This document shows positions 20,813-52,538 of a stretch of 64,000 bases of DNA, one piece after another (the stretch's first letter is position 1; every line of letters begins with the position of its first letter). The DNA lies in assembly GCA_964016885.1 (NCBI GenBank), contig OZ024742.1:127472001-127536000 (forward strand), read 5' to 3'. The DNA comes from Eledone cirrhosa. Lineage: Eukaryota. The position numbers and the translations under genes were made by a program. The notes below the pieces were generated by a model. It worked only from the letters and a program-made list of their open reading frames with translations. It ran no database searches and was not told the origin of the DNA.

Positions 20813-20886
20813 TCCCATGTGGTCTAGTGGTTAGGATTCCTTGCTTTCACCCAGGCGGCGCCTATGTTCGATTCCCGGCATGGGAA
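20813..20886 (+). pseudogene. tRNA-Glu(TTC) pseudogene
   Basis: Copy of 33190-33261 with an anticodon-stem mismatch and disrupted T stem (GGCGCCTATGTTCG versus GGCCCGGGTTCG); only TTT downstream. Confidence 0.85.
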
Positions 20887-21350
20887 CAGCATATTTATAT
20901 ATATATATATGTATATAGGATTGGGGCTAGGATTAGATTTGCTGTATACATAAGGGTGGAGCAACTCTTGTTAATTCTCTCCTTCACGTGTAATGAATCG
21001 GGTGAATTCTATGATATTTTCGTGTTCATATTTCGAGATGTAAAAGTAATGATATCCTCTACAAGAAAGACGAAGTGTACAGCACAATGTAGAGGAGAAC
21101 CAAGAGAGGTAAATACAGGAATAGCTTGGATAATCGAGGTAATACAATATGACATTGCTATGACAATCGAGGTAATATAATATCACATTGCACCCCATGC
21201 AACAAATCACTGCATGTCGTGGTGTGGTCCTTATTCGGGTGGAAACAGTATATATGGATAGCACCGATTCACTCAATCGATTACCTACACCTTATAAGTT
21301 TGCTTGTCCGGATCTGACAGCGGAGACACAACGTTAACACATACGTGACA

Positions 21351-33189: not shown

Positions 33190-33261
33190 TCCCATGTGGT
33201 CTAGTGGTTAGGATTCCTGGCTTTCACCCAGGCGGCCCGGGTTCGATTCCCGGCATGGGAA
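33190..33261 (+). tRNA. trnE-TTC: tRNA-Glu (anticodon TTC)
   Basis: 72-nt cloverleaf TCCCATG...CATGGGA-A, anticodon arm CCTGG CTTTCAC CCAGG, intact A and B boxes. Confidence 0.96.
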
Positions 33262-33268
33262 CGGCATA

Positions 33269-36438: not shown

Positions 36439-38856
36439 TGTAGCAAGCTACTTTCCTCTGGCGCATTGATACCCTTTCCATGCGTTGTTTGGCTGAGTTC
36501 AGCCAATCGCTAGCAGCGTAGGGAAATGTACCTCAACTTCCGCTTAGAGGGAGAAATTCGCGCTTCTTTTCGATAAACTCTCTCTCTTGCAGCTCGGCAC
36601 GTTAAGGTAAAAACCTCTTGAATTCGTTCCTCAAGCATAAACAATATGTAACAACAAAACATCACTACGGACCTGGCTAACGCCTCAGCCAGTTGACCGT
36701 ACCTTCTCAAACCTTAATTTTGTTTGTTCATTTCTTTTGGCACGCCATCCAACCAAGCTCTCCTCATCTTTATTAAATACAAACTTCATTGGTGACCCCG
36801 ACGCGAGCCACCGGACTGGTTTCTGTCACTGCTGCCAAAATGGCTTCAACATTAGGAGGCAGCCTAGAGAAAAAAAGTTGTTTGATCATGGCGCTGTCGG
36901 CTGGTGCGTCTTCCGCGAGCTCTCTCGTTATCCGTGGGAGCTGAGTAGGTCTGCAGTCGCCTAGATGCACGTCGTTCACGAGAGTACGAAACTTCCTACC
37001 TGCGGAGACAGAAGTGCGGTTAAAAATTCCCTTTTCTTTTTTTTTACACTATTATACGTAGCTGCCGGAGACGGGTCGATAATTCAGTTATTGACCGTTG
37101 ATGTTAAGGAAGCAGCAATGGCACTTGGCAAAGGATGGAGCTGTCTAGAGTCGGAAGATATATTACGTGCTAGGAAAAACGATTCCATCTGTGCAAGCCA
37201 GATCCGCACATCACCGCCAAACGCCGGTAGTGAATTGCTTGCCATTGCCGATGGTGATATAAGGACTGCTTCTCACGACTGAAAGAAACAGGAGATAGAC
37301 GTTCGTAAACTTCACCGCAAACAATAACTGGATTATTCCTCTTGTATAAAAATGACACATGGCAGTGACATAAAAAAAAAACTATCTAAATTGGCGACCC
37401 CGTCGCGAGAACATTTTCGAACTAAATATTCCTCTAAAAAAAAATAAGAAGTAGTATTTTAAGAAAGAAAATAACACGCAAGCTTTCTTGTATTGTATTG
37501 TATTGTATTGTATCAAAACTCCATGTAAAAATGTTCTTGATAACATGACATCACGTTGTTTGCCTTCAATGAACCTGCCTAAGAAAACATTCTTTGAGGA
37601 AAAATTAGCTGTAATTGAAAAATTTATAGCGCGAGAAAATTTTTTTTAACATGGCTTCCACTGACAGGAACAACAACAACAACAGCAGCAGCAGCGACAA
37701 CATTGGTTAACCACTAACCATAAACACGGGAAAGATGCTTTCAAAATAACAACTTCGTCACATCAGCAGTGTAATCGTCAACAATGTGACAGCTTTACAG
37801 CCTTACCGACGCAACCCACTACACTTTCGAATTACGGGATTACAGCTTCAACTGCGACCTACCAACAGATTCAACTTTTTGCTTTCTTTTCAAAGCAACT
37901 TTAGCCATTTTTTCTGGCTGCCAAGCATTTTCGGCAATTCACTGGGAGGCCGACAATTTCTCGCCTACCCATCAACTCCTTGCCAGCACCTGCGAATATT
38001 GACTCACATCTTATGGCCGCATAACAGCCATCATAGAGTCGTTGGATCTTTCTTCGCCGGAATTAGCAATCGGTAAATGCAGATACCTGCCCGTACACAG
38101 CTACTGATAAACTACCATAACAACTTCATCCACACAGCTCTGGTACAACATTTACCATAACAGCTACACAGCTCTGGTAAAACAATTACCATAACAACTA
38201 ACATTTAATGCAAGAACAGCAAATTTTCGCCCATGTTAGACTTTATCCGTTTTCTGTTAGACCCCGGGTGGTCACGTATAAATAGCAAAACAGCTAGTCA
38301 TTTGACACAGCAGCTTAACAAGTCCCTTAGCGCCTCACTTACAATTTTTTTTCTTGCATGAATTCTTTTGTTTAATTTTTTCATTGATGTGCTCTCTTTC
38401 AGCGTTTTCCTGCTAGTAATCAATGCGAATTCAATCTTATTTATCATCCTTCCGGACTAAATGGGGGGTATCGTAGCAAGCTACTTTCCTTTGGCGCATT
38501 GATACCCTTTCCGTGCGTTATTTGGTTGAGTTCAGCCAATCGCTAGCAGCGTAGAGAAATGTACCTCAACTTCCGTCCAGAGGGAGATATTTCCGCTTCT
38601 TTTCGATAAACTCTCTCTCTTGCAGCTCTTGCACCGTTAAGGTAAACACCTCTTGAATACGTTCCTCAAGCATAAACAATATGTAATAACAAAACATCAC
38701 TACGGGCCTGGCTAACGCCTCAGCCAGTTGACCGTACCTCCTCAAACCTTAATTTTGTTTGTTCATTTCTTTTGGCATGCCAGCCCAGCTAACGTAGCTC
38801 TTCTCGCAATCTTTGTTAATAAATTATATTAAAACTTATAAAGTCTTATGATGTTA
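36439..38856 (+). mobile_element. Non-autonomous Gypsy-type LTR element 1
   Basis: LTRs 36439-36788 (TG...CA) and 38472 to about 38856; tRNA-Trp PBS TGGTGACCCCGACGCGA at 36790; PPT ATGGGGGGTA at 38461. The 3' end abuts a Helitron and no TSD was confirmed. Confidence 0.85.
36807..37245 (-). pseudogene. gag: Gypsy gag N-terminal fragment (DUF7041-like), antisense to its host LTR element
   Basis: MASNSLPAFGGDVRIWLAQMESFFLARNI ... LGDCRPTQL ... IKQLFFSRLPPNVEAILA, with frameshifts. Confidence 0.8.
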
Positions 38857-39684
<828 letters not shown>

Positions 39685-40520
39685 CCTATATATCTAAAAC
39701 AGAGAATGTCTGTCTGCCTGTCCCCCTAAAACTCGAGAACCACCCAACCGGTTGTTTTCAAATTTTACACAAGTAATACTTATGGTCGTGTGAGTGTTTT
39801 GAGCAAAAAATATTTCAAATTTTCAATGCCCTAGGGACCACATTAGGTGAAAAACCGCATATTTTAGGCTTTAAAGGTTTTATGGGGGGCATAACGGAAC
39901 AATAATCTAGCGATTTCTTCAAAATTTGCATTACTTATGTCGTTTAAAGTGTTTTGAGCAAAAAGGATTTTCTCATTTTTTTCCCCCAGAGAACGCATTA
40001 GGCGAAAAACCGATTTTTAAAAGCAATTTGGTTGCGTTAGGGCCTGTAACTCGAGAAGTACCCAACCGATTTTTTAAAAACTTTGCATATGCATTACTTA
40101 TGTTTCACAAATTTTCTTGACTGAAAAAGATTTCAAATTTTTGCCCGGAGACCGTATTGTTTAGAATGTTGGTTCCGTTAGGGCCTGTAACCTTAAAAGT
40201 ATCCAACTAAATTCCTTCATGCAGTCCCACATGCTTACTGCTCTGTAACTATTGCTTTCATTGTACCATAGCACAACAAATAAATGTTCGGTTTGTCAAA
40301 TGCCTTTTTACTTAACTTTCGTGGGTTGAACATTTTACTCTCAGGCACCCAATTAAGTTAAACCCCTGGTAATCTACAACGAATTTTTTTAATAAGCACA
40401 AAATGTAGACACCATTCCCAGGCCGAGGTATTCCGTACTTTTCTGTAGTGTTTCAGAAAGGAGGGATAAACATGCCAATCTATGTTTAGAATCCCGAGCA
40501 ACGCCGAGCCATTCTGCTAG
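39685..40520 (+). mobile_element. Non-autonomous Helitron, second unit of a tandem
   Basis: Head CCTATATATCTAAAA directly after the previous CTAG; hairpin and CTAG|T at 40517-40520. Confidence 0.85.
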
Positions 40521-40539
40521 TATACTAAAATGGTGAACA

Positions 40540-42639
40540 TATAGCGAGATTACTGGCTGTATGAATGTAACAAAACGTGACATTGTTTGTGTATATAATA
40601 TTTAATTAACGGTAGATAGAATACTTGACATGTCAAAGATAGATGTTAGAATGAAACAAAGTTAGTAGTTACCGTTTTGATTGCCAGGCAAACGCGGCTG
40701 GCAGAGGGCGCCTGGCTAAGGCCAGGCGCCTGTTGGCCAAATTAATGGCAGAGCCAAATGAGAAGACTCTTGACCTGGTGCCGAAAAGGCAAAGAGAGGA
40801 AGGAAGCTTAAAGTTGTTAGTTTTATAGGGCTCTGACCGGAAGTTGCAGAAAGGGTTCCACCTCCCGTCTAGATCCTAATCAAAACAAGGGAGACAACCG
40901 CTACATAACCTCCCGCCAGAATTTTAGTGTATAAAAATCGAAATGAAAATATGTAGCAAGTTGGCGAGAATGTTGTAACAGGCATGAAAATTACGACAAA
41001 AGAATGTTTGGAAAAATCAATGATAGATATCAAGGTAGCCAACCGCTCTTGGCCAGAGAACGACTGGACATCCATCTATCCATCACCCAAAGATACAATG
41101 TAATAAAGTAAAAGTAATAGAAGAGCTCAAAGTTCAAAATATAGTTCACAGGTGTGCAATCACATGACAGCAGGAAAGAAAGTGTGTTCCAGAGAATGAA
41201 TGCAGGTGGTTTCTGTTCTGTGGTATATCGTGAAATTTCCAACCTCCGAATGGATTTTCTCACAGGAAGAGTGCTGCAAAAATAAATTCTCTGGCTTTGG
41301 TGAAGCTGTGTTGATGTATTGCTGTTGCTGTTATATTGCTGTTGCTGCTGCTGTTGTCTCGCTGAGTGAGCGTATTCGGTGTTTAAATTCACAGTAAAAA
41401 AATTTTTTTTTTTAGAAAAAAATGAGTTGCGCAAAGTGCTAGAAATAGCAGCCGAAGTTGATGGTCGATGTTGAGAATGCGTTGACCTGGAAGGGTCAAG
41501 AGGCCAGCGACCAGAGAAATAAGCATTCTTAATAAATGCGCGGTTATCAACGGTAAATTTACATTGTAAATTTATAAACCGGCAAATAGAAGAATATAGC
41601 TTAAGGCTGAAGAATCCCTGGTGATAAATGGCGTGCGGCTGTCTGTGAGTAGAGACATCTCAGTGAATCGAGAATTTATGCTGCCTACACGTGCCAATAC
41701 AAGGTTGAAAAAAAAAAATTTCTAACGCGCGAGAAAATGATAGTGCAATTTTGAAAGTGACAATGATGAAAAAGAAAGGCTTCAATCAGCATAATTATAG
41801 GTGTGAACTTTGGAAAAAAACAAAAAACTTGAACGATGAAGAAAACGAAGAACAAAAGGCAATGGTTCATCGAAAATAAATGTTCCTGTTGAAATGTTTT
41901 TTAAAGAATATCAAATTTCTTTTTTTTTTTTTGTGTTTTGAAAGAGTTCGTTGTAAGAAACGAGAAACATATATATATATCGTGAAATGTTTTTTTTGTT
42001 TTGAAAGTGTTCGTTGTAAGAAACGAGAAACATATATATATATATTGGTGAAATGCGACAGTTAATTGATGCGTGAGAGAAAAAGTATGTCTGTGCGAAT
42101 TCCACATGTGCGTGTGTGCGTGTCCTTGAGTATTTTCATAGTTTGTCGCTAAATTTGCTGTGTATTCGTAATGTTACTCACAAAACCAGATGTGCTATTT
42201 TTTTCTTTTTTTGGGGGGGTGACCACTTATAGCGATGAACGGCTGCGTGTTCGTATCACGTCAGGGTCACCAATATAGCGAGGATACTGGGTGTATGAAT
42301 GTAACAAAACGAGACAATGTTTGTGTATATAATATTTAATTAACGGTAGATAGAATACTTGACATGTCAAAGATAGATGTTAGAATGAAACAAAGTTAGT
42401 AGTTACCGTTTTGATTGCCAGGCAAACGCGGCTGGCAGAGGGCGCCTGGCTAAGGCCAGGCGCCTGTTGGCCAAATTAATGGCAGAGCCAAATGAGAAGA
42501 CTCTTGACCTGGTGCCGAAAAGGCAAAGAGAGGAAGGAAGCTTAAAGTTGTTAGTTTTATAGGGCTCTGACCGGAAGTTGCAGAAAGGGTTCCACCTCCC
42601 GTCTAGATCCTAATCAAAACAAGGGAGACAACCGCTACA
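40540..42639 (-). mobile_element. Non-autonomous Gypsy-type LTR element 2
   Basis: 366-bp LTRs at 40540-40905 and 42274-42639, 4-bp TSD AACA, PPT GGCGGGAGG, tRNA-Trp PBS at 42272 running leftward; no internal protein recognised. Confidence 0.95.
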
Positions 42640-42842
42640 AACATTACATGGTGCTATACTAATAACATAATACACCATCATCTTATGTTATAAACTGCTT
42701 CACTGGTGACTTCTTTGATACACAATACGTAAATACAAACATTAATATTCCCACATCTATATCTATTTAATAGTTCTAAATGTGTTTCTATCTGTTCTCG
42801 TTTCTTTGTCTGTCATTTTACCTCGCTTTCTCTATTTACTAT

Positions 42843-43440
42843 GGAGTTCCACTGAAGCAGGTGGAGATGTTCATGTGTCTCGGGGCCATGTTCACGAATG
42901 ATGAAAGACATGGGGCTGAATTAAGTGCAAGAATTGCAGGAGCTGGTGCACTAATGTACCAGCTTCAGCATTCGGTAATCAGAAGAAGGGTGGTAGGTGT
43001 AAAAGCCAAACTCGCTATCTTCAATTCAGTATTCGTGCCAACTCTTACCTATGATCATAATCTTGGGTAATGACCGAAAGAATATGATCGCGAATACAAG
43101 AGGCTGAAATAAGGGTTCCACCGAAGGGTGCGTAGCTTGGGGATCAACGACTCACTACACGTAGAGCCGCTACTTCTCCGAACTGAGAGATCACCGCTTC
43201 GATATTATGCGCATGTGGTTAGAATGTCTCAGGAAAGAATCACTGGGTAGATTTTATGAGCAGAAACAACTGGCAAGAGACCCAGGGGTAGAACCCGAGC
43301 AAGATAGTTGGATAACATCCATGAACTTGGCTGGTCTCGCTTGAGTATCCAGCCGGATTAGTTGGGGACCGTTGCTTCTGACAGGATCCACAGGAAGAGT
43401 GTTTGAGGACTCTTTCCCCATAACCCTCTCAGGAATAAGG
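42843..43440 (+). mobile_element. RTE LINE (family B) 3' fragment
   Basis: VPLKQVEMFMCLG...IFNSVFVPTLTY; matches the reverse complement of 30290-30950. Confidence 0.85.
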
Positions 43441-44431
43441 GAAATTGGAAGGCATAACGAAATAAGTTTCCAAATTTACGTTTAGCTTACTGCAAACACA
43501 AATCGAAGGTATTCGCTAAAGGAAAACAATAACGAACTGGACTGAACAGAAAAATGAAAGTATTAAAAAATTGGATTAATTTTTAAAAACTTGGGATTAA
43601 TTTCGTGTGTATATATTATATCTATTTATATGTAAATAATTGTTTCTACCTTTCTGGCACAAGGCCAGCAATTACCCAGTGTATTATTGGTACTTTATTT
43701 TATCGACCCCATAAGGATGAAAGGCAAAGTTAACCTCGGCGGGATTTGAACTCAGAATGTAAATAATGTCATTGAGGTTTATACCTTTTGCGTTGCCTTT
43801 TGTTATATTTTCTGATATGTTTGTATTTTTCATCTCAGATTTATTTCATTTATTTCTCTAATGGATTGGATATTTTCTTCATTATTTGACGCATAGAGTT
43901 ACGGCCCTTGCCATTCTGAGTTCAAATCCCGCCGAGGTTAACTTTGCCTTTCATCCTTACGGGGTCGATAAAATAAAGTACCAGTAATGTACTGGGATAA
44001 TTACTGGCCTTGTGCCAAATGTAGAAACAATTATTTATTGTTGCTGTTGTTGTTTTGTTTTTATGTTTTGTTGTGAGAACTAAACTTCTCGATATCTAAG
44101 GGGATAGTTTGTGGTTTAAAAGTCGAGAGAATCGCGGCCTATTACGTAATCGGGTCGTAGTGGCTGCAGATAATAGCTTTATTGGCATTATTATATAGAA
44201 ACTACGCAATGTGACAGCTGCAGTTTGATAACATGTGTCTTCCCCATTTGGTGGCTATTGCGGTCTGGTTGCGTAAACTGAGTTTGGGAGAATGGGTGAT
44301 CCGCGTTTGATTTGTCGAATTTGGAGAGTAAGTGCGGATTGTTTGGCAGGAGTCATGGGTACATGCTGGCGTTCGGTTTAGGGTATTTGTTGAGGGTTAG
44401 TAGACTGATTGGAGCAATAACGGTCTTAATT

Positions 44432-46479: not shown

Positions 46480-49439
46480 TCTATATATCTAAAACAGAGA
46501 ATGTCTGTCTATCTGTCTCCCTAAAACTCGAGAACCACCCAACCTATTTTTTTTCAAACTTTACACATATAATACTTATGGTCCTGTCAGTGTTTTGAGC
46601 AAAACATATTTCAAATTTTCAATGCCCCACAGACGGCATTAGGCGCCAGTTAGCGATCTCTCTCTCTCTCTCTTTCTTAGTCTGTCTTTTTAGATAGATA
46701 CATAGCTATAACGCCGCGTCCTTATAATATCTGTCTGTATGTCTGGCTGTCTGCATTACGACATTATGCCAAATATTGTTCTCATTGCTGACGTATTATG
46801 TTCGCTATTTCCCGTTCATTGCCAGGGAATGTCTTCACGAACCAAAGTATCGCCTTCCTGTTTTCCTTCGGTTGCAACGTTTTTCGAAATATTTACTTGT
46901 GCGTTCACAGATTGATTTTTTTAGTTTCAGAAGATCCCGTTAAGGGTGAAAGCAGCGATTATTTGCTTAAACTTTAATCTCTAGCAAGAGTTACCTCCCT
47001 TGTTATGACGATCACATCACCAGTAGCGCTCTCTAGACAGGAAGTAGCTGGAGTTACTTCCCGTTGAGGTGGCAGAACCTTCTTTGTCACTTCCGTCCAG
47101 GGACCCTATAAAGGAGAGAGCTCCAAGCTATCTCCCTCTCTTTTAACCTGCCTGGCCCTTCGGCCAGGCGCATTGTGCCAGAGGGTATACTCTCTGGCAA
47201 CCTGAACATGGTAATGTAAAGACCTCTTGGTCTAATGCGCGCTGACTACAAAACGGTAAACAAATAACTTTAATTCATTCTTTCATCTCTCTTGGTATGT
47301 CAACTATTCTGCTCTACATAGCTCAACCTTGTTAAATAAACATTGTACATACAACCGAGAGTCTTGTTATATTCATACAACCCAGTGTCCTGTTATAATT
47401 GGTGACCCCGAGAAAAAAATAATAGGATTTGGTGTTGTGTGGATATGAAAAAAAAAGAAAATTAATTAGCAGTATTTCAAAAAGAAAAAATTCCTCTATC
47501 AACATTCCACATGGATTTTTCTACAACATTTCACATGGATTTTGTCTACAACGAAAAATATAAGTAATCTTTTCCTCAGCAGCAAACAAACAAGAAAAAA
47601 TTTTGCTTTTCACCTCACGTGTTTACATCGTTTAAATGTGTTTCAATCACTGGATATATCCTTCGTCCCTCGCGCAATAGAAATATTTTTTTTCAACTTG
47701 ACTTTAACCTTGTTTCGGCACGTGTGGGAGCACACATCTCGACTCACTGAGTTAACACACGCCATAGATAATGTTTCTTGCCAAGGATTCTCCAGCCTTA
47801 AGCTATATTCTCCTATTTGCCGGTTTAAAAATTTACCACGTAAATTTGCCGTTGAAAACTGCGCATTTATTCAGAATGCTTATTTCTTTGGTCGCTGGCC
47901 TCTTGGCCCTTCCAGGTCAACGCGTTCTAAACATCGACCATCAACTTTGGCTGTTATTTCTAGCACTTTGCGCAACTCATTTTTTCTGGGAAACTTTTTA
48001 CTGTGATTTGAAACAACTTTGAAAGAGTTATCTCACTCCGCGAGACAACAACAACACAGCTTCATCTTTGCTTTATCAACAACCAAAACCAGCAGAACAA
48101 GACAGAGAATTTATTTTTGCAGCACTCTTTCTGTGAGAAAATCCCAATTTCACGTTGTACCACAGTCTAGAAACCACCTGCATATATTCTCTGGAGGACA
48201 CATTTTCTTTCCTACTGTCACCTGTGAACTTTATTTTGAACTTTGTTTATAACTATATTCGAGCACGTTTCTTTGCTCCTTTGACCTCTTCTTTTGATTA
48301 CATTGTATCTTTGTGTGATGGATAGATGTCCAGTCGTTCTCTGGCCAAGAGCGGTTGGCTACCTTGATATCTATCATTGATTTTTGCATGCTTATATTTT
48401 GCTGTTTTGCTTTTATTGCAAACATTATTTTGTTGTAATTTTCATGCCTGGACTTTGGTGTTACATGCTCGCCATCTTATTTCATACATGGTTGATTCGA
48501 TTTTTTTGTTTTACAAATCTGGTGGGAAGTAATGTAGCAAGAGTTGCCTCCCTTGTTATAACGATCACATCACCAGTAGCGCTCTCTAGACAGGAAGTAG
48601 CTGGAGTTACTTCCCGTTGAGGTGACAGAACCTTCTTTGTCACTTCCATCCAGGGACCCTATAAAGGAGAGAGCTCCAAGCTATCTCCCTCTCTTTTAAC
48701 CTGCCTGGCCCTTCGGCCAGGCGCGTTCTGCCAGAGGGTATACTCTCTGGCAACCTGAACATGGTAATGTAAAGACCTCTTGATCTAATGCGCCCTGACT
48801 TCAAAACGGTAAACAAATAACTTTAATTCATTATTTCATCTCTCTTGGCATGTCAACTATTCTGCTCTACATAGTTCAACCTTGTTAAATAAACATTGTA
48901 CATACAACCGAGTGTCTTGTTATATTCAAACAACCCAGTGTCGCTGTTATAAATCTGTTATTTTAATATATATATATATAATTATATATTCGTATACAGA
49001 TATTTTTGCATACACAAAAATAAAATATAAACAAACGGATTTATTTCACGAAAGCACAGATGGCTTATCGTCATTGTTACTGCCGATATGCCATCCAAAA
49101 AGTCCCACTACTTTTGTCACAAGGCCAGCAATTACGTAGTCAACGGTTCGCAAATCACATGCATCACTGACGAGTTTACTCCTTACTCTACCAGTTAGTC
49201 TTAGTGTACTTCATCCTGCTTTTAGGTCATGCCTCGAAGGAAGAGATACTCCATTGGCCGAAATACTGCGAAAGCGGCAAGAAAAAGAACAAGGCGGGCA
49301 AACGAATCGTCAGTGGATTCTGCTATTCGACGGTCGCAAGGCCGAGGTATTCCGTACTTCTCTGTATTGTTTCAGAAAGGAGGAATAAACATGCCAATCT
49401 ATGTTTAGAATCCAGAGCAACCCCGGGTCATTCTGATAG
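46480..49439 (+). mobile_element. Non-autonomous Helitron split by LTR element 3
   Basis: A|TCTATATATCTAAAA head; the halves rejoin as in 39351-39400; decayed hairpin and ATAG|T end. Confidence 0.85.
46980..48951 (+). mobile_element. Non-autonomous Gypsy-type LTR element 3
   Basis: LTRs 46980-47397 and 48533-48951, 4-bp TSD AATC, PBS TGGTGACCCCGA at 47400, PPT GGTGGGAAG; interior homologous to element 2. Confidence 0.95.
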
Positions 49440-51756: not shown

Positions 51757-52538
51757 GGCGATATCCAATTTTAGCTGTCTAAATGCCGCTTACTTGCTGC
51801 AGTTGCTTCTTACTTCAATGTATGAGGCTATTCCAACAAATTTGCATTCCCCTTTTTTTTAGCCGTGAAAAGAAATATAGATTTATTTATTTTTTTTTTT
51901 TGCGATTTATTTGCCACTGGGGCATAGATTTCTTTATTTGCACCTTTTTTGTTTGTTAGTTTTTTTGCGATTTATTAGCCTTTTGGGGTCACACACACCC
52001 CCGTAGAAAGTGTGCGACCTTTCTGCCAGGGAGTACAGAGAGAGGGGGGTGCTCCCTTCTCTTACCTGTACAAGCCGATATAGAGAGATGGCCCACTTAC
52101 ACGGGCCATTATTGCTACTTTCACCCGAAAAAGGCACTCAGTCCCAGCCAATTCCATGAAAGATGGGTGAAAGTAGCAATAATGGCCCGTGTAAGTGGGC
52201 CATCTCTCTATATCGGCTTGTACAGGTAAGAGAAGAAGGGAGCACCCCCCTCTCTCTGTGCTCCCTGGCAGAAAGGTCGCACACTTTCTACGGGGGCGTG
52301 TGTGACCCCAAAAGGCTAATAAATCGCAAAAAAACAAACAAACAAAAAAGGGGCAAATAAAGAAATCTATGCCCCAGTGGCAAATAAATCGCAAAAAAAT
52401 AAAAATAAATAAATCTATATTTCTTTTAACGGCTAAAAAAAGGAGGAATGTAAATTTGTTGGAATAGCCTCATACATTGAAGTAAGCAACAACTGCAGCA
52501 AGTAAGCGGCATTTAGACAGCTAAAATTGGATATCGCC
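51757..52538. mobile_element. Foldback MITE, Merlin-like termini
   Basis: Inverted arms 51757-52126 and 52165-52538, 38-bp spacer, termini GGCGA...TCGCC, 8-bp TSD AGGCAAAG. Confidence 0.88.

Follow-up and report, generated by a model that had tools for sequence, protein, structure and literature searches.

A probable read-through of the tRNA-Trp primer past position 58, inherited by an LTR retrotransposon family of about 500 copies

The element and its primer-binding region

The window (the whole stretch of 64,000 nucleotides analysed here, from a 3.0 Gb genome) contains an LTR retrotransposon oriented on the minus strand (Table 1). Such elements have a total length of 2.1 kb. Two direct LTRs with a 4-bp target-site duplication, a primer-binding site (PBS) and a polypurine tract adjoining the LTRs, and an interior that lacks gag and pol in copies dispersed on many contigs identify it as a non-autonomous LTR retrotransposon. 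We take the 4-bp duplication to fit Ty3/Gypsy (Metaviridae). The termini are TG...TA in the window and in most copies and TG...CA in some, for example L125 and L267. The longest internal frame (209 aa) had no Pfam match at E<=1, and a scan of 40000-43500 gave no Rfam match at E<=1, as expected because the tRNA fragment is so short.

Table 1. Positions of the element, of its parts and of a sister element in the window
Feature	Position	Strand	Remark
Target-site duplication AACA, left copy	40536..40539	.	From sequence
3′ LTR, 366 bp	40540..40905	-	TG...TA ends on element strand
Polypurine-tract-like stretch adjoining 3′ LTR	40906..40919	-	From sequence; kept in copies compared; presumed role
Internal region, non-coding, ~1.3 kb	40920..42215	-	73% like sister interior over 932 nt
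Inner PBS, presumed ancestral, decayed in window copy	42216..42225	-	Perfect 12-nt tRNA-Trp 65-76 match in older copies, e.g. L168
2-nt spacer and 13 nt of duplicated LTR (U5) tip, presumed landing site	42226..42240	-	Tip itself 42228-42240
tRNA-Trp positions 45-57, copied (over-extension)	42241..42253	+
T at tRNA position 58	42254..42254	+	A in 90/92 gene-like copies
Outer 18-nt PBS, tRNA 59-76 with CCA	42255..42272	-	A67 and C72 in window copy
5′ LTR, 366 bp	42274..42639	-	TATAAA 79 from 5′ end, ATTAAA 67 from 3′ end
Target-site duplication AACA, right copy	42640..42643	.
Sister LTR element, similar U5	46980..48952	+	One 12-nt tRNA-Trp PBS (47400-47411), without extension; duplication AATC

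Separated from the 5′ LTR by the single base 42273, the stretch 42241-42272 matches positions 45-73 of the host tRNA-Trp plus CCA, with T replacing A at position 58 (host gene L032 compared). This agrees with the original prediction of a tRNA-Trp copy (45-76) with CCA and T58 lying 1 nt from the LTR. A second LTR tip and a PBS-like site had also been predicted just inside, and both are present; the tip is 13 nt long and not 8 nt. The sense strand of the element carries the complement of the tRNA. This polarity is expected when plus-strand synthesis copies a primer and is not produced by minus-strand synthesis.

Raw Illumina reads of another sample cover 42254 at a depth of ~75, with no other letter at 3% or more among the rows listed, and therefore T58 is not an assembly error; positions 67 and 72 are variable in the same reads. 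One contig from another organism spans the junction and has no difference listed at 42254, at a depth of 2.2 that is too weak for dating the event.

The two LTRs differ at exactly five sites, the number originally counted, at tip positions 10, 11, 18, 39 and 44 (42274-42317 of the 5′ LTR, at most 44 nt from one end) and at 0/316 positions elsewhere. Their overall divergence is 1.4%.

The sister element is non-coding, has LTRs that are 96% identical and likely displays the ancestral layout. Its tip resembles the inner tip of older family copies, in which the perfect 12-nt tRNA-Trp PBS is followed by an A-run (for example L168). Because these older copies share the 12-nt layout with the sister, where this PBS is used alone, the template on which the over-extended strand landed most likely had a normal short PBS, a reading that draws on one sister copy. 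The inner site had been described as a defective PBS; judged by the sister, it would have been intact at the time, with the decay arising later, in younger copies. We also considered the inner motif as the 5′ acceptor strand of a tRNA (a mini-tRNA) and rejected this, since host genes mostly start with GGCC, not GACC, and the motif is a plain PBS in older copies. Three of the ~15 LTR differences of the sister lie within the last 45 nt.

Certain older tips have GCGTGT in common with tRNA positions 49-54, and this likeness is a possible guide for landing. In avian retroviruses, a pairing of U5 with the T arm of tRNA-Trp has been proposed (PMC13191261).

Several further features were observed in the window. 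In the inner site, position 72 has changed from C to G, which creates a 7-bp inverted repeat with the outer PBS (42219-42225 with 42265-42271) that could hide the inner site in the RNA. Two more tRNA-Trp PBS-like sites of ~14 nt lie on the plus strand at 36790 and 37392, 602 nt apart. ARAGORN calls tRNA-Glu(TTC) at 20813-20887 and 33190-33262, each upstream of similar open frames, and these calls are possibly the heads of a repeat. A long inverted repeat with arms of 145-171 nt (95-97%) spans 51757-52538.

Position 58 in the family, in host genes and in other over-copies

A 28-nt pattern had 541 matches in the genome against 0 for a reversed control, so the matches are not due to chance. T58 is present in 93 of the first 100 matches listed, from which we estimate a family of ~500 copies. 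Both T58 and the layout are common to the best 30 matches (30/30). Among 30 copies chosen via the interior of a divergent copy, 28 keep the tRNA-Trp unit and all 28 unit-bearing copies have T58, which is found even in the most divergent subfamilies sampled. Genome-wide, seven family copies have another base at 58, in every case C, and none has A58. T58 is therefore inherited family-wide, so that the event is ancestral and T58 counts as one data point. The original prediction had placed the event at the insertion in the window, and this part of it has to be given up.

Within the 14-nt extension, identical in 76/81 copies, T58 is the sole fixed difference from the gene. The tRNA-Trp unit has since been duplicated in L069 and L185 and is lost in L267-L269, three copies at separate sites. 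We read these three as secondary losses: they look like a collapse of the inner and outer sites, and an unrooted tree places them among unit-bearing copies within a starred group. A search for an exact pre-event family copy returned one match, which was an outer PBS. At G000:C14:21370000-21465000 lies an array of at least 13 near-identical family copies, ~4-6 kb apart and all with the tRNA-type PBS described below.

For comparison with the host genes, a core tRNA-Trp pattern gave 101 matches, part of them retro-copies, and 92 gene-like copies were read. Position 58 is A in 90 of the 92, T in one and G in one, and CCA is next to none of them (0/92). Most of the gene-like copies, many of them degenerate, lie in two clusters (G000:C4:353.39-353.49 Mb and C4:277.40-277.44 Mb).

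The sole gene-like copy with T58 (G000:C4:353469756) makes it conceivable that the element captured, at the DNA level, a tRNA-Trp gene or pseudogene already carrying this base. However, this copy has A57 and the element has G57, and the G57/T58 combination is found in none of the 92. The duplicated U5 tip and the clustered ends of the other events described below would also be left unexplained, and we regard such a capture as very improbable indeed. The expectation that no host gene encodes T58 is touched by one gene-like copy, which because of its A57 does not refute over-copying from the primer.

Probable over-copies of the primer also lie outside the family. A pattern that leaves positions 57-59 free matched 38 longer tRNA-Trp fragments with CCA in sequences other than the family, and all of them were read. 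Position 58 is A in 25 of the 38 and another base in 13 (T in 7, C in 3 and G in 3); position 59 is non-A in 0/38. Collapsing a hairpin pair and two shared-junction groups leaves 32 junctions. Ten of the 32 are non-A at 58, compared with 2/92 gene-like copies (Fisher p=1.8e-5) and with 0/32 non-A at position 59 (p=8.5e-4). When one mixed group is left out, 9/31 junctions are non-A at 58 (p=5.7e-5). The enrichment of mismatches at 58 that the original prediction called for is thus present, and the 32 other junctions support its core, namely a reverse transcriptase (RT) that over-copied the primer past 58, left a mismatch and landed on a tip-bearing template.

The 5′ ends of the junctions fall at positions 35-44 or 27-29, with 18/32 at 36-40, 6 at 26-29 and 0 at 30-34. 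The gap and the second cluster have a simulated p=1.4e-4 under geometric decay, with windows picked after the data were seen. The ends thus cluster near G37 and G26, and G37 is altered in 2/8 fragments scored there versus 1/92 genes. We presume that tRNA-Trp bears modified G37 and G26. In other tRNAs, m1G and m2,2G at 37 and 26 stop or mislead RT (PMC5066629). The extension of the family ends at 45, outside both clusters; another group with an end at 45 (L064-L066) has A58.

Directly upstream of the fragment, a duplicate of the element's own LTR tip is found in 9/38 cases, against a mean of 2.1 and a maximum of 7 in 300 shuffles. The flanks of independent cases give Pfam hits to protease, RT, RNase H and integrase, with a Gypsy order (RT-RNase H-integrase) in L095, another Trp-primed element; the landings of L095 and L076 lie in pol. 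A second LTR was found for 4/20 other events within 9.5 kb and for 0/31 within 1.5 kb, and since it is so rarely found, the LTR adjacency of most of these events rests on shared flanks, tip shape and Pfam hits.

Individual cases show further variety. Non-A58 is commoner with A57 (8/14, the hairpin pair counted once) than with G57 (4/23), possibly because the two tRNA forms differ in methylation. Two pairs, L080/L105 (G000:C10:53056915-53056997) and L067/L091, are inverted LTR-tRNA copies that we interpret as fold-back products, in which the over-extended strand would have turned at the anticodon arm and then copied itself. In L076 (G000:C14:18749196) the tRNA-Trp copy is nearly full-length (to ~position 6), has C58 and is joined to integrase sequence. 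Copies that share a junction can differ at 58 (and 47), with T,A,T,A,A in L096/101/103/112/262 and G,T in L120/L261; such differences within one junction suggest that strands landed there more than once or that the extension was copied again.

The re-copying suggested by these two groups bears on whether the extension has been kept for a function, as an over-extended plus-strand acceptor (comparable to the lentiviral primer over-extension sequence) or for extra primer pairing, which would be compatible with an origin by over-copying. Its retention in 28 of the 30 copies chosen by interior is in line with this. Nonetheless, re-copying should mostly restore A58, which no family copy has; with 0 A58 and 7 C58, the family tally gives no sign of acceptor use, an outcome that a low rate of read-through would equally produce. 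Three copies at separate sites do without the unit, and by our estimate from branch lengths, 14 unchanged bases need no selection at the depth of this family. A function therefore appears doubtful to us, though worth keeping in mind.

The over-copies outside the family also bear on the age of T58. Read-through on an unmethylated tRNA would have given A58, and the founder lineage would then have gained T58 afterwards by point mutation. The founder T58 is a single event, the 25 of 38 other read-throughs that retain A58 and the single T58 among 92 gene-like copies are what this reading would lead one to expect, and PMC12657518 prefers to explain read-through, in most cases, by under-modification. 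Against this, T58 is the only fixed difference in an extension otherwise unchanged from the gene, it is already present in the most divergent subfamilies, and T occurs at 58 in 3-5/32 independent junctions versus ~1% of genes, a roughly tenfold change in the odds by our estimate. A later mutation is thus quite unlikely, and mis-copying of the base at the time of read-through is preferred. A strong A-to-T bias has been published for m1A followed by U (PMC4787781); in tRNA-Trp base 59 is A, so this T bias is not directly applicable here.

PBS type and LTR-tip differences

The outer 18 nt occur in three main forms: the family type (A67, T72), which is the majority, the common-tRNA type (G67, C72), and A67/C72 as in the window. 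The family-type 3′ end is carried by no A58 sequence, and no host tRNA with such an end was found in the assembly, which is possibly incomplete. The common-tRNA type had 78 matches, of which 2 do not belong to the family and 13 form part of one array.

Differences between the LTR tips of a copy depend on the type of PBS. Of 101 loci examined, 81 were parsed into LTR pairs and 72 of these had a (4-bp) target duplication; the 20 unparsed loci and 9 pairs without duplication were excluded, and contig C1 was the sole source of family-type copies. At least two differences within the last 50 bp are found in 18/33 family-type and 5/6 A67/C72 copies compared to only 1/33 tRNA-type copies (p=4e-6). In the replication set by itself, 8/17 family-type pairs are discordant versus 1/27 of the tRNA type (p=1e-3), and the contrast persists with the dropped pairs included and any tip difference counted (25/36 versus 9/36, p=3e-4). 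Per kb, tRNA-type copies have 4.8 differences in the tip and 5.7 in the rest of the LTR, whereas family-type copies have 46 and 8.2, respectively. In the rest of the LTR the PBS classes differ little (p=0.08). The original prediction had counted the five LTR differences in the window as part of the over-extension event; because tip differences are tied to PBS type, they belong to this PBS-linked effect and are separate from over-extension.

The tip differences stop near 50 nt, just past a sequence that lies 67 nt from the end and is likely the poly(A) signal. Of 24 discordant pairs, 18 have tips that both lie nearer to the tip of another copy than to each other. Whole tip haplotypes recur: for example, the 5′ tip of the window copy and the 3′ tip of L255 have the same sequence. 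These patterns fit a PBS and U5 that would be inherited as a heteroduplex, with strong-stop DNA derived from a second co-packaged RNA. Error-prone initiation or mutation after insertion could instead have produced the differences within each copy, given that LTR variability among 45 young copies is highest at the tip (0.139 over the first 25 nt) and that 6 of the 24 discordant pairs are not nearer to another copy. However, post-insertion mutation would be independent of PBS type and would not account for the recurrence of whole haplotypes. We consider these local sources of change unlikely and favour the second RNA.

On a tree of 72 copies, the tRNA-type PBS requires 16 changes, at least 5 of them forced by starred branches, and it has therefore arisen repeatedly. 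The tRNA-type copies are also more clustered on the tree than in shuffles (16 versus 23.9 changes, 0/500), so some of them became sources themselves. Here the heteroduplex model falls short, since tRNA-type copies seldom show discordant tips, a point that it does not fully explain.

Proposed origin and relation to known systems

The anatomy, the inherited T58, the 12-nt PBS of the sister, the enrichment at 58, the clustered ends and the PBS-tip link are direct observations. We consider it very probable that the family of ~500 copies was founded in a single ancestral round of reverse transcription that passed a presumed m1A58, mis-copied it and re-landed. Plus-strand synthesis would have run 14 bases beyond this base of the attached primer, with the RT mis-copying base 58 and leaving T. 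The over-extended strand would then have re-landed 13 nt inside the U5 tip, on a template with the short 12-nt PBS of the clade, perhaps guided by the short stretch in which U5 resembles the T arm of the tRNA. We further infer that this species has m1A at A58 and that G37 and G26 are modified.

In later cycles, copying would stop at 58, so that only positions 59-76 would be rewritten, and each new DNA would be heteroduplex across PBS and U5. Retention of the primer-derived strand would give a PBS that matches the common tRNA and two LTR tips that agree. Retention of the template-derived strand would preserve the family PBS, and the 5′ tip could then differ from the 3′ tip, which would come from the second co-packaged RNA.

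We lean, by a modest measure, towards a broader view. Animal genomes would contain an in vivo record of tRNA modification that can be mined: LTR-adjacent over-copies would show where the RT left mismatches (58 and 37) and where it stopped (37 and 26), and could be read and dated from assemblies. One accident would have turned a 12-nt PBS into an 18-nt retrovirus-like one in a family of ~500 copies. A PBS/U5 heteroduplex from two RNAs would make LTR pairs differ at birth, and ages based on LTR divergence would therefore be inflated; the window copy, whose divergence is confined to the tip, illustrates how LTR dating can be biased. Such a record would provide germ-line in vivo evidence of a non-retroviral RT that overruns the stop at position 58 and copies it wrongly, and would allow tRNA modification sites to be inferred from assemblies of species without tRNA sequencing.

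Isolated instances of primer-derived sequence within proviral DNA exist in older virology. Our search of the literature, in which older virology was thinly covered, found no inherited and amplified over-extended PBS and no modification signature in genomic copies. In tRNA sequencing, RT mismatches at 58 as well as stops and mismatches at 37 and 26 are well described (PMC4787781, PMC5066629); as reported in the consulted parts of these studies, the signatures come from laboratory enzymes in vitro and tRNA-Trp is outside the described set, whereas here the signature is in genomic DNA.

Lentiviruses and spumaviruses have a primer over-extension sequence (Muthuswami et al. 2002, as summarised in PMC13191261 and PMC6088434). 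Likewise, the complement of the primer beyond 58 (positions 57-45) follows right after the PBS in the element. The lentiviral sequence, according to these summaries, serves copying to ~55, whereas here the extension reaches 45, is mismatched at 58 and has no sign of re-copying (0 A58).

Mouse ETn, MusD and IAP elements have a common PBS with two mismatches and perfect PBSs scattered over the tree (Cullen and Schorn 2020, PMC7472051), a pattern similar to the mismatched family type and its revertants. Inheritance of the primer copy is offered by the authors as a speculation; the consulted portions of their paper report no match between PBS change and tRNA modification and state that Ty1 and Ty3 keep their own PBS. 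Unlike in the mouse study, as far as those portions go, reversion here co-segregates with U5 identity, and this link between PBS type and U5 tests their speculation. In Arabidopsis, co-packaged RNAs of Onsen recombine, giving new copies from two parents with recombinant LTRs (PMC5668417); inter-LTR differences that are confined to U5 and linked to the PBS, as found here, are not described in the available text of that study.

The closest known system is HIV-1. Among defective proviruses, 44 have tRNA-Lys3 inserts of 7-54 nt, 5 of them changed at 58 (Hardy et al. 2025, PMC12657518), and arise by delayed (aberrant) second-strand transfer, in which RT passes primer position 58 and transfers elsewhere. 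The element has the same primer sequence continuous with the PBS beyond 58 and the CCA end at the LTR. In place of a downstream landing with deletion, 13 nt of U5 are duplicated and the product has spread. The HIV-1 products, as described in the parts of that study consulted, are somatic, deleted and defective and involve tRNA-Lys3, whereas here a non-retroviral element primed by tRNA-Trp passed the product on, and it has multiplied to ~500 copies. The element is thus a variant of the HIV-1-type class of delayed second-strand transfer: the read-through at its core was already known, and it is found here in a new, germ-line setting and with population-level evidence.
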